Origin: a virus
Taxonomy: Duplodnaviria; Heunggongvirae; Uroviricota; Caudoviricetes
Virus record (IMG/VR): IMGVR_UViG_2537561620_000013
Span: 1-10,741 of that record
Length of the DNA stretch: 10,741 nt
Reading direction: 5' to 3' (one strand)
Numbering within the stretch: the stretch's first letter is position 1; each line of letters opens with the position of its first letter. The position numbers were made by a program. Below, one piece after another: positions 3,001 through 6,000 of the stretch.

Positions 3001-6000
3001 AGCGTGGTGGAGGCATCCGGTGCCAGCCTGGAGAAGGGGCGGCATGACCAGCTGCTTACCGCACTTCGTGCGCTGCTGTTAAGCCGCAAGAATCCGTTTG
3101 GCGATATCAAATCGGATGGCACGGTGAAAACGGCTCTCGAAAACCTTGGTTTGGGAGAAGCAGCTAAAAGGAATGTAGGTACAGGGGCGAATCAGATACC
3201 TGATATGAGCCTGTTCGCGTCAATTAATACCGTAACGGCTGCTGCGCAAAAATTTCCGTCTGGATTAATTTTACAGTGCGGTCAGTTGAATGGTGCCCCG
3301 AATGTATCTTCAACATACGGGATGAGGTTCCCGATGACGTTCTCAAGAGTCATTGCTGTCGTAGTTACATTGAACGTTACTGGCGCGGCTGGGCAGCCGA
3401 CTGTATCGGCGACAAGTGTCCAGAACACTGGATTTAATATTACTGTGTCGCCCGGTTCAGGATACGGTTCATCTGCTGATGCGTATTACATTGCAATGGG
3501 ATATTAACGAAATGTCATATTTTTATTCTGCATCGACAAACGGATTTTATTCGACTGAATTTCACGGCACCAATATTCCTGATGATGCAGTGGAAATCTC
3601 GGAATCAGAGTGGAAAACACTGATTAATGCACAGAGTGTAACAAAAATGATTACCTGTGGTGAGAACGGTCATCCTGTCATTGTTGACCGTCCTTCTCCA
3701 ACACCAGAACAATTAGCCTTAATAAATGATGAAAAGAAATCTGCACTGATAGCAGAGGCAACGAATGTAATAGCTCCGCTTCAGGATGCGGTTGATTTAG
3801 GTATGGCAACAGATGATGAAACGAAACTGTTACTGGCATGGAAAAAATATCGGGTGCTGCTTATGCGTGTTAATGTAGTAAAACCCGAGTGGCCTATGCA
3901 TCCAAATAAATAGACTTGTTAATCTAGGATAATTGTTGGAATAATACTCATTTTTCAGTAGGTTCAGGTAGCCTGGGTATAATGCTCACTTCTACAATGA
4001 TTTCAACTTATTTTATTTAATTGATATTACGAAACTTAACTCATACATAAACAATATGACTCAATACTGTCCTAAATAGCTGCGCAGAAAAGTGCTCCAC
4101 TTTCGCTCAGCCCTTGCTGGGCGAAGCATCAGGAAGGCGTTCTCAGCTAGGTTGTGTTATATCTGGCTTGAGTTTTGTTGCCCATACGCAACACATTACC
4201 CATCTGTAAACGACAAGTGTGACAGAATTAGGTGCAGCTATTTAGACTATATCGACGCAGTAACGATAATAGATATCGAAACTGTACTAGATATTAGCTA
4301 CTTATGGTTACCGGGGGAAGTCTTTTGAGCACTGGTGTTATCAATCGGCTTCAAATAATTCACCAATAAATTATATTGCGATAGCTCATCACCTTCCAGG
4401 TTGTTTATAGCCAGTTTATCAGCGTCACCACCTACTGTTTATGCTTTTATTTCTTTGATTAATAAGTATATGATATTTTAATTCATCTGGTGTATTTCTT
4501 TCTCATGTGTTGGCCGACTGAATATCTGTTCAGTGAAGGGGTAATTTTATGTTTGCACTTCGAACATTCCCTTCAGTTGCCAAGAAAGAAAACCGTAACA
4601 TTTGCGCATTAATTTTAACAGTATAATCTGAGCATAAATATGCGCTATATATCTATAAAAAGGCGCAATTAATTGCGCCTTTTTATCATTTTATCAAAAA
4701 TGGCCCACCGACTGTCCTCGATAGCCAATGGCCAATTTTATCTGATACATATACATAAATACAGGTATATATGATTGCGCAGATAGGATTTGGAATGGTC
4801 ACGCTGAAGCCTATGATTGCTAAAGCCATAGGGATAAATAATTTGGTGATATACTCCATTCCACATATGTTAAGAGTATTTCTTCCAGCTCTTACAATAA
4901 AGTCATTCCCACAAATTATTTTTGCTATAAAAATATTAAATATTATCAAGCCTACCGTGGTGATAATAGTATTAATAGCTTGAATATAACTACTTGATAT
5001 TATGTCTGCATTGAATATTGAGATAATCTTAAAAAGCAAAGGTTTCTGGTTAAGGAGTTGATACGCACTCATTATCGCGGTAATTGAGAAGACAATGAAA
5101 CCAATTTTAGATTTTCCAAAAAACCTGTCACGTGTTAATTCTAAAAACATACATCTACCGAGAGGCAATAACCACCAGTATGCCATAGCGGAGTCTATGT
5201 TCCAAAACCATTGAGGATCTAGTAATGGGTTATGATTGAGCACTGTTTGTGACAACATGAACGATAATAGTGATATGATTAAAATCACTATATTGTTCTT
5301 GACTATTTCTTTAAAGATTGCATCAATTGCTATTATAACAAAAAGGCAGTTTATAAACCATATTGTTCCTACAAATTGGTTGTTTCTAACACCATATATT
5401 ATATCATAAATGTGGCTATATATATAATCAATCGTCTCACCTGAGTTAATTGTGTTTATTATTAATATAGTAAATGCAAAAGTGAAATATGGAATCATTA
5501 ATCTGTAAAACTTTGACTTGATATAATCGAAAATAGATAAGTCATTTTTTTTGATAGTAAAAAAACCAGCAGCGAAAAAGAATAGTGGGACGTGATAACT
5601 AAAAACAAAAGGATACAATTTGCCAGCCCCCAAACCAAGGTGACCTAAATATATAGCAAAAATACCGAGAAATTTTAAAGCATCAACCCAATCATGCCTT
5701 GTTTTTCTGTTGTTGTCGATTTTGTTATTATACATTTAAAGTAGGCTCTCCAGTTTTGTGTGATTTTCAAACACTCATTGCAAATATGAATGCCTGAAAG
5801 TTTATGATTATTAATCAACGAGTTCAATATTAATTTATTATTTTTCAAAGTCGCACTATATAGGCATTTACTTCCGCAGTACCACCGATAGTATCGATAT
5901 CAAATCAGCCTGCGGCCGCGATAACTTTCGTAACATCCTGCCAGCGGCTTTGTTGAATAAATCAGGTTCAAGACAATCGTCTCTGCATCAGGTTAGAGTC

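Follow-up and report, generated by a model that had tools for sequence, protein, structure and literature searches.

We analysed the tail fibre gene in a 10,741-nucleotide stretch of viral DNA (IMG/VR record IMGVR_UViG_2537561620_000013, positions 1 to 10,741; referred to below as the window), which is the tail end of a serotype-converting myophage prophage of the SfII/SfV type. The fibre gene is very probably a two-part chimera joined at a crossover site for a Pin-type DNA invertase, the site being left from a decayed and locked host-range switch. On the plus strand it follows Mu gp45-, gp46-, gp47- and gp48-like baseplate genes and precedes tfa, the gene for a tail fibre assembly chaperone, according to the open reading frame (ORF) list and Pfam. 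The gene directly 5' of the fibre gene matches the Pfam model Phage_Mu_Gp48, and tfa starts 5 nt past the fibre stop codon; an alternative ATG at 3479 would yield a Tfa of 144 aa. The Caudo_TAP domain of Tfa (PF02413) scored 90-91 bits against a gathering cut-off of 22.1, and a Gp53-like_C domain (PF21882) was found on fibre aa 132-216 (E 2e-13, 51 bits against a cut-off of 24.9). The first-pass annotation of the window had called the fibre short. Its length of 216 aa was correct, but it is not unusually short, as the e14 fibre StfP has 209 aa and the SKA5 fibre 215 aa.

A compositional break inside the fibre gene had also been described in that annotation, and the break is real. The gp46- to gp48-like baseplate genes have a G+C content of 0.577 and a G+C content at third codon positions (GC3) of 0.62-0.66. 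The first part of the fibre gene (2857-3159), described earlier as GC-rich like the baseplate genes, lies at their level with a G+C of 0.554 and a GC3 of 0.627. The values fall to 0.471 and 0.426 in the remaining part (3160-3507) and to 0.403 and 0.313 in tfa. Both change-point analysis and GC3 tests argued against a uniform composition. Over the region 1220-3913 the maximum-likelihood G+C change point was located at nt 3088, with a log-likelihood ratio of 22.4 and a support interval of 2 log-likelihood units from 3044 to 3433. For the fibre gene alone, G+C at all codon positions gave no significant change point (p = 0.16), and therefore GC3 and the extended region were used. The GC3 change point inside the fibre gene was found at codon 90 (nt 3127; permutation p = 0.004), and GC3 on the two sides of the crossover site was 64/102 and 49/114 (Fisher p = 0.004). 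The break is thus placed at ~3130-3160, somewhat upstream of the ~3180 first proposed. The signal lies mostly at silent positions and becomes stronger when tfa is added. G+C at second codon positions (GC2) shows no drop within the fibre gene, with 0.42 in the N-terminal and 0.52 in the C-terminal part. Because the shift occurs at silent positions and GC2 does not fall, amino acid composition does not explain the break.

Further downstream, G+C falls in steps and across several modules, to 0.364 in the spacer 3914-4685 and 0.316 in the acyltransferase gene behind it. The description of everything downstream as AT-rich was accurate for the fibre C terminus and tfa; uniformity beyond them was not found, as several stretches are less AT-rich (0.44-0.50 in 5800-6200, 0.42 in gtrB and gtrA, 0.48-0.51 in the integrase fragment and insertion sequence). 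Nor is the AT-rich DNA downstream of tfa part of the same swap, since it consists of separate modules, namely gene relics, an oacD-like gene and gtr genes. The E. coli phages SKA5, 720R4 and 689R6, like e14, have the same kind of G+C drop at the site. As the cassette described below also has a constant G+C, the break is a family-wide property of the junction between constant and variable parts and no one-off event.

The compositional break coincides with a Din-family crossover site at 3134-3159. The minus strand of this segment reads TTCTCCCAAACCAAGGTTTTCGAGAG. The pixL site, with the 26-bp sequence TTCTCCCAAACC AA GGTTTTCGAGAG, is tabulated among the Din-family sites in Table 3 of PMC3241671, and it has a single exact match in the window, where none is expected by chance. 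In a K-12-type genome, the left boundary of the e14 P segment consists of the same 26 bp, and pixR is located 1.8 kb away, beside pinE. Inversion of the 1,797-bp e14 P segment between the repeats TTGGTTTGGGAGAAGG has been observed experimentally (PMC12529663); window positions 3146-3161 have 15 of the 16 bases of this inverted repeat. As part of the fibre gene, the site is read in frame and encodes ...ALENLGLGE.... The phages SfII, SfV, SfI and SfIV all carry the same single pixL. In a table of the SfI genome paper, the homology between SfI and e14 ends at SfI position 17,234, on which the paper does not comment. After conversion of the coordinates, this position is the inner edge of the pixL-type site.

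A second crossover site was not found in the window, where a search with the 14-nt half-site at up to 3 mismatches gave only chance-level matches (3 against 0.94 expected). Positions 3694-3707 were considered as a second half-site and rejected, being a chance-level match without the GGTTT core. The 41-kb SfII genome likewise contains a single site, with no second one at up to 8/26 mismatches. An active switch was rejected, as the searches of the window and the SfII genome gave no second site beyond chance.

On the left of the site, the fibre gene belongs to a widespread constant part. The N-terminal part is 95% identical at the amino acid level to StfP aa 1-109 of e14, and the segment 2857-3162 has 96-98% nucleotide identity to the Sf phages, the E. 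coli phages SKA5, 720R4 and 689R6, and e14. In SKA5, 720R4, 689R6 and e14, the fibre C termini and tfa differ from those of the window, and invertase genes are located nearby. The relatives that diverge at the site, SKA5, e14 and 606R2, possess an invertase gene together with a second inverted site. When the fibre gene plus tfa was used as query, 1,876 of 5,426 complete E. coli genomes matched, only 14 of them over at least 80% of the query; the DNA at 2857-3160 has 96-98% identity in these genomes and is followed by many different C termini. The ends of 40 evenly spaced matches clustered at 3158-3160 (22 matches), 3169 (4 matches, e14 type) and 3207-3215 (9 matches), the last being the end of the conserved linker. 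In the junction alignment, identity extends up to GGTTTGGGAGAAG and is followed by at least three unrelated continuations. The constant part is always accompanied by the same baseplate genes, yet it carries many different tips. From this coinheritance and from homology, we infer that the N-terminal 90-100 aa attach the fibre to the baseplate; the similarity to the N terminus of the phage Mu S protein (5yvq) is weak (E 0.012).

Two side observations concern the surroundings of this part. The phages 606R2 (L006 5001-5079), 611R5 and 683R1 share with the window, at 97.5% identity, the 79 bp that lead up to the inner edge of pixL (3082-3160). No similarity to the window is detectable in the rest of their fibre N terminus or in their baseplate genes (48% G+C). 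A short conserved block common to the 606R2-type fibres is thus present on the constant side of the site too. In Shigella flexneri SFBU1023 (L010) and E. coli ECMA0423 (L011), a 99.1% homology begins, at ~5337 of these loci, only at window position 2848, just upstream of the fibre gene, and the baseplate genes of the window are missing or replaced.

On the right of the site, the tip and most of tfa form a cassette. Among phage records, 3163-3913 was matched at the DNA level in Sf phages only, and the nearest tips outside this group have 34-46% protein identity. An 11-residue stretch of the linker is invariant across 40 gp53-like tips. The cassette is present in 32 of the 5,426 E. coli genomes, and its context was inspected in three of the 32 records. 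In E. coli Rb-23, it is located in a P2-like prophage on a 469-aa fibre with a P2 H-type N terminus. In the 48.7-kb plasmid pGMI14-004_3, a phage-plasmid, it is part of a 629-aa, repeat-rich fibre accompanied by three crossover sites and a recombinase gene. In the P2-like prophage of E. coli AW1.7, it forms a silent, N-terminally incomplete copy between the recombinase gene and the expressed fibre. In these contexts the cassette is thus part of invertible segments with recombinase genes beside them. The identity to the window is 95-98% and extends from 3132, 3135 or 3140 to 3871 or 3874. These homology bounds in three foreign fibre contexts indicate that tip and chaperone move as one unit, in agreement with the first-pass proposal that a fibre tip and its cognate Tfa had been exchanged together. 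Separate similarity searches of the two fibre halves, which had been suggested as a check, gave very different distributions. With the constant part joined to many tips, and tip plus tfa joined to three unrelated tail modules, the cassette is the varying unit. Its G+C is 0.47 in the tip and 0.41-0.44 in tfa, beside baseplate genes of 0.39, 0.56 or 0.58; because it keeps its own lower G+C everywhere, a compositional break results. A scan of genome contigs with Tfa as query returned only two near-identical Shigella/E. coli loci and was uninformative on other species.

The right boundary of the cassette lies within tfa. An alignment of Tfa sequences distinguished three C-terminal ends, NTSTALDIEWPTPPAVQAR in SfIV, Rb-23, AW1.7 and pGMI14-004_3, DIKNTEWPKKPEGNK in SfV and SfI, and NVVKPEWPMHPNK in the window. 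Judged from these alignments, the native end of the window tfa, formerly overlapping a convergent tfa', appears to have been lost. The C-terminal tails were located at 3875-3913 in the window, at L015 4064-4120 in SfIV and at ~4383-4408 in L002. An EWP motif is retained in all three types of tail, which suggests repeated recombination within the tfa 3' ends with conservation of this motif.

The structure of the fibre was predicted with AlphaFold2. For aa 129-216, block values of the predicted local distance difference test (pLDDT) were mostly 75-95, with one block at 65. In Foldseek searches, the predicted domain matched the R1 and R2 pyocin fibre tips 6cxb, 6cl5 and 6ct8, which bind LPS (E 9e-6 to 4e-4), gp53 of phage AP22 (4mtm, E 6e-5) and Helix pomatia agglutinin (E 5e-3). 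Based on the model, we infer that the domain is a carbohydrate-binding receptor tip, which would fit the O-antigen-dependent host ranges reported in the SfII and SfIV genome papers. Tfa accompanies the tip in every context, and this supports a cognate pair.

The DNA downstream of tfa contains relics of a lost switch (Table 1). The relic at 4242-4328 has 54% identity to TfaE-type proteins (E 0.002-0.005) and is also present in SfII and E. coli AR_0061. The relic at 4328-4628 was recovered in tblastn searches with aa 29-132 of the SKA5 U and 720R4 Tfa proteins (E 4e-7 to 4e-6) and by blastn (67.7% over 164 nt, E 8e-8). For the invertase relic, tblastn gave 58% identity over 36 aa to the SKA5 invertase (E 7e-10) and a match to PinE (E 0.002); an in-frame stop lies 12 codons upstream, and SfII and AR_0061 carry the same relic. 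No intact invertase was found in the window or in the SfII genome, the latter by annotation and tblastn. The junction relic at 6151-6267 has 88% identity over 51 nt to the e14 tfaP/tfaE overlap; in SfIV it matches the opposite strand of 4022-4129 with an identity of 79.6% over 108 nt. An inverted repeat connects 3823-3844 and 6246-6267. The alternative cassette survives only as the decayed fragments 4242-4628 and 6151-6267, with the oacD-like gene between them. A single inversion or deletion behind all relics was considered and found unfit, given the two tfa-junction relics and a 42-nt overlap (3833-3874/6216-6257). Also in this region, a fragment at 6059-6161, between the invertase relic and the second junction relic, is ~80% identical to the end of IS903B/IS5-family elements. 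SfII contains ISSfl9, an IS4-like element, at the equivalent of ~6095-6110, and the window does not.

Comparison of the Sf phages yields a series of decay. In SfIV, the tail of tfa is still the native one (...DIEWPTPPAVQAR), and a TfaE-type gene in convergent orientation persists, truncated by ISEhe3. This gene is ORF-22 (L015 4092-4616), which is 92% identical to e14 TfaE aa 30-200. In the SfIV genome paper, ORF-22 is regarded as an additional tail fibre assembly protein unique to this phage and as a possible explanation of its host range, with no mention of inversion. By its sequence, ORF-22 appears instead to be a remnant of an invertible segment. In the window, SfII and AR_0061, only the relics and the invertase fragment are left. 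No such relic was found in SfV and SfI within the tail-to-int stretch compared, where the next gene, ~125-235 bp past tfa, is a gtr gene. The DNA to the right of tfa differs among SfV, SfIV and SfII.

Table 1. Coordinates of the fibre module and of the neighbouring features in the window
Feature	Position	Strand	Remarks
Tail fibre gene	2857-3507	+	216 aa, ORF intact
Constant N-terminal part of the fibre gene	2857-3133	+	G+C and GC3 in line with Mu-like baseplate genes
Mobile cassette (inner half-site, linker, receptor-binding tip, Tfa minus last 13 codons)	3134-3874	+	
Orphan Din-family (Pin) invertase crossover site	3134-3159	-	26/26 identity to e14 pixL
Conserved linker of one cassette sub-family	3160-3207	+	Homology to SKA5, 720R4 and K-12 yfdL ends at 3207
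Predicted beta-sandwich, H-type-lectin-like receptor-binding domain (aa 129-216)	3241-3504	+	AlphaFold2, Foldseek
tfa, tail fibre assembly chaperone gene	3512-3913	+	133 aa; Pfam Caudo_TAP, E 1e-25
Lineage-specific replacement of the tfa 3' end	3875-3913	+	Ends ...NVVKPEWPMHPNK; homology breaks at 3874 or 3894
Relic of a decayed TfaE-type assembly gene, C terminus	4242-4328	+	tblastn with SKA5 U'/e14 TfaE aa 172-195
Relic of a decayed TfaP/U-type assembly gene	4328-4628	-	Stops and frameshifts; convergent with the 4242-4328 relic
Perfect palindrome, likely terminator	4655-4686		14-bp stem; annotated terminator in SfII
Acyltransferase-3 gene, homologue of SfII_25 (oacD), among the relics	4686-5735	-	Pfam Acyl_transf_3
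Serine DNA invertase relic, 40 codons	5830-5949	+	Equivalent to Pin-type invertase residues 73-112; contains the motif FRSTTDSID
Relic of a convergent tfa/tfa' 3'-end junction	6151-6267	-	Inverted relative to SfIV

The chimeric structure, the identity of the site, the bounds of the cassette, its occurrence in other invertible segments and the relics are direct observations, whereas the direction and order of events are read from these comparisons as follows. The constant part is inherited alongside the Mu-like baseplate genes of 57-58% G+C. The cassette, from the site to ~3874, would provide a lectin-like receptor-binding tip and the Tfa that folds it, and belongs to a pool residing in invertible tail fibre segments (Mu G, P1 C or e14 P type) of unrelated phages. 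The ancestor most likely possessed a full switch of the e14/SKA5 type, composed of the constant part, pixL, tip-Tfa, a convergent Tfa'-tip', pixR and pin. In the SfII lineage this switch would have decayed to one site, the 40-codon invertase relic and fragments of the alternative cassette, and genes for O-antigen modification (the oacD-like acyltransferase and gtr genes) now fill its space. With one site and no invertase, the fibre would be fixed in one specificity.

Several points weigh against this reconstruction. The 40-aa invertase fragment is too short and decayed to be recognized by the Pfam Resolvase model, and it was assigned by tblastn (E 7e-10). The relics of tfa, too, are short and degraded (E 1e-3 to 1e-7), and two separate tfa-junction relics exist (4242-4628 and 6151-6267), which one simple deletion does not fit. 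The roles of the two fibre halves are deduced from homology and from a monomer model with a mean pLDDT of 75 and a poorly modelled linker. The prophage is probably defective, as judged by frameshifts in the gp45-like and gtr-type genes and the truncation of the integrase by an insertion sequence, unless the differences in the baseplate genes are sequencing errors; in a defective prophage the fibre may no longer be in use, though the ORFs of fibre and tfa are intact. Finally, an exchange mediated by an invertase could not be told from homologous recombination over the half-site and linker and over the 3' end of tfa, since both would produce an identical pattern.

The last point leads to the alternative that is hardest to set aside, in which the cassette moved by homologous recombination alone between conserved flanks and the pix site marks the boundary merely as conserved DNA. 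We regard this as a genuine, if tentative, possibility. Conserved flanks are available, with the 79 bp at 3082-3160 common even to 606R2-type fibres on the left, the linker invariant in 40 tips, and tfa 3' ends that are ~70-79% similar across many phages on the right. In addition, Din invertases strongly prefer intramolecular inverted sites. In the P2-like contexts, however, homology starts within the 26-bp site (3132-3140) and the outer half-sites are unrelated, as expected if all DNA rightwards of the central dinucleotide is invertible. This in-site start explains the boundary in each phage itself, but not the route of transfer between phages.

A reversed direction, in which the GC-rich Mu-like baseplate module and the fibre N terminus were grafted onto a resident tip, chaperone and conversion region, appears unlikely. 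It would be in line with the base composition, because the baseplate module (57-58% G+C) exceeds the whole-phage average of 49.2% reported for SfII, and tip and tfa (0.40-0.47) are nearer to the flanking conversion genes. The constant part, however, is tied to the same baseplate genes with many tips, whereas the tail modules that accompany tip and tfa are of three unrelated kinds. Moreover, the DNA to the right of tfa varies among SfV, SfIV and SfII, and therefore no conserved resident block is present.

We consider it very unlikely that the site is still active, with a Pin-type invertase of the host or of a prophage acting in trans to recombine 3134-3159 with a second site outside the window and so to switch or exchange the tip. 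The perfect pixL and the intact ORFs of fibre and tfa would permit it, and PinE as well as PinQ and PinR, the latter two encoded by another prophage, have been reported to invert the e14 P segment (PMC12529663). However, the site searches in the window (up to 3 half-site mismatches) and in SfII (up to 8/26) gave no second site beyond chance, no intact invertase was found in either, and only decayed fragments are left of the alternative cassette. For their activity, Din invertases require an enhancer as well as two sites in inverted orientation in cis. The Fis-dependent enhancer is normally contained in the 5' part of the invertase gene; this part is missing in the window, where the relic comprises aa 73-112 only. 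Absence of any horizontal exchange, with the G+C drop caused by the amino acid composition of the receptor-binding domain or by selection on it, is extremely improbable: although GC2 does not fall (0.42 to 0.52) and all-position G+C in the fibre alone gave p = 0.16, the drop affects GC3 (from 0.63 through 0.43 to 0.31; p = 0.004) and coincides with a sharp homology break in hundreds of genomes.

A related proposal, which we rate as very unlikely, is that the orphan but perfect pixL of SfII/SfV-type prophages still serves as substrate when cryptic prophages in the same host provide Pin-family invertases in trans, as reported for PinQ and PinR on e14. If it were true, a new tip-chaperone cassette could occasionally be captured, or chromosomal rearrangements between prophages could arise, and phages that seem to lack a switch would have a route to host-range change.

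The remainder of the window was compared with the Sf phages. The identity to SfII is ~97.8% over 1-6110 and 7748-9721, and homology to SfII stops at 9721. SfV, SfI and SfIV match the window over 1-3874/3894 and in the gtrB-gtrA-int region, and the fibre gene is 97-100% identical to the fibre genes of SfII, SfV, SfI and SfIV. The minus strand contains, by ORF list and Pfam, the acyltransferase-3 gene, a broken gtr-type gene, gtrB, gtrA, an integrase fragment and an IS3-family transposase gene. The acyltransferase region is ~98% identical to SfII, to which oacD has been assigned (PMC8952252). The palindrome at 4655-4686 is located ~740 bp beyond the tfa stop codon and reaches as far as the stop codon of the acyltransferase gene, which is transcribed convergently. 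It measures 32 nt, has T runs on both sides, separates the late operon from the acyltransferase gene and probably acts as a bidirectional terminator.

Several lesions were observed in this DNA. An 11-bp tandem duplication, GGTGCGGAAGT, is present at 423-451, with the insertion at 437-447. This duplication shifts the reading frame of the Mu gp45-like baseplate assembly gene (260-808) and is found in none of SfII, SfV, SfIV, SKA5 and E. coli AR_0061. Single-base differences at ~9 and ~217 touch the end of the gp44-like gene. The serotype-specific gtr-type gene (6453-7718, minus strand) is not gtrII; its homologue is the gene for a 413-aa DUF6056 protein in E. coli AR_0061. It is broken by three single-base deletions (~7705, ~7291 and ~6857) and by the expansion, by 47 nt, of a hexanucleotide repeat, (TTTTTA)n, at 7182-7246. 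The integrase is cut to its C-terminal 154 codons by an IS3-family element (window positions 9273-9737 and 9720-10741). This element, with orfB at 9763-10581, has copies of 99.4% identity in many Stx2a-converting phages.

The analysis provides base-level boundaries (~3134-3874, tip plus chaperone) for the exchangeable receptor-binding unit of SfII/SfV-type Shigella phages, and shows that this tip-Tfa cassette circulates among P2-like prophages and a phage-plasmid. These boundaries mark points at which fibre tips could be swapped for host-range engineering of Shigella and E. coli myophages or tailocins. Existing annotations can be reread accordingly, in that the "unique" extra assembly gene of SfIV and the DNA around oacD of SfII would represent remnants of a Pin-type host-range switch. 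The genome papers of SfI, SfII and SfIV make no mention of an orphan pixL or of switch relics.

Among known systems, the closest is the e14 P segment (stfP-tfaP/tfaE-stfE, with pixL/pixR and pinE), which has the same 26-bp pixL and the 95% identical N terminus. Both have a Mu gp48-like gene upstream (ymfQ in e14) and the G+C drop at the same place. Of the two, e14 alone has a further site in inverted orientation, an intact pinE and both tip-chaperone sets complete and convergent. The window instead has one site, the 40-codon invertase relic, another tip and Tfa (<40% aa identity) and genes for O-antigen modification. As an invertible segment it is not functional, having one site and no intact invertase, but it does contain pixL, an StfP-type short fibre N terminus and the Gp53-like_C and Caudo_TAP domains. 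SfII is 97.7% identical to the window in the N-terminal part and 99.7% in the cassette, and SfV, SfI and SfIV 95-98%; SfII differs in the gtr-type gene and by the ISSfl9 insertion. Rb-23, AW1.7 and pGMI14-004_3 share the cassette and its boundaries at 95-98% nucleotide identity, but have unrelated N termini (P2 H-type, PF12571, 469-629 aa) and recombinase genes, the latter partial in Rb-23. The predicted fold of aa 129-216 matches R-type pyocin tips, AP22 gp53 and H-type lectins (E 9e-6 to 5e-3), whereas sequence identity to them is only 12-30%.

The same architecture of a constant N terminus, an in-gene site and a variable tip with its chaperone is present in Mu (G/Gin, S-U/S'-U'), P1 (C/Cin) and p15B (Min), and the site of the window fits the list of Din-family sites (PMC3241671). 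These systems differ from the window in that its switch is non-functional, and the similarity to Mu S is marginal (E 0.01). The fibre chimera is a well-documented instance of a long-known kind of phage mosaicism and involves no new mechanism. Sandmeier, Iida and Arber reportedly described fibre genes in 1992-94 as mosaics exchanged at such crossover sites, and the fibre gene of the window is a clean case of this long-known principle.

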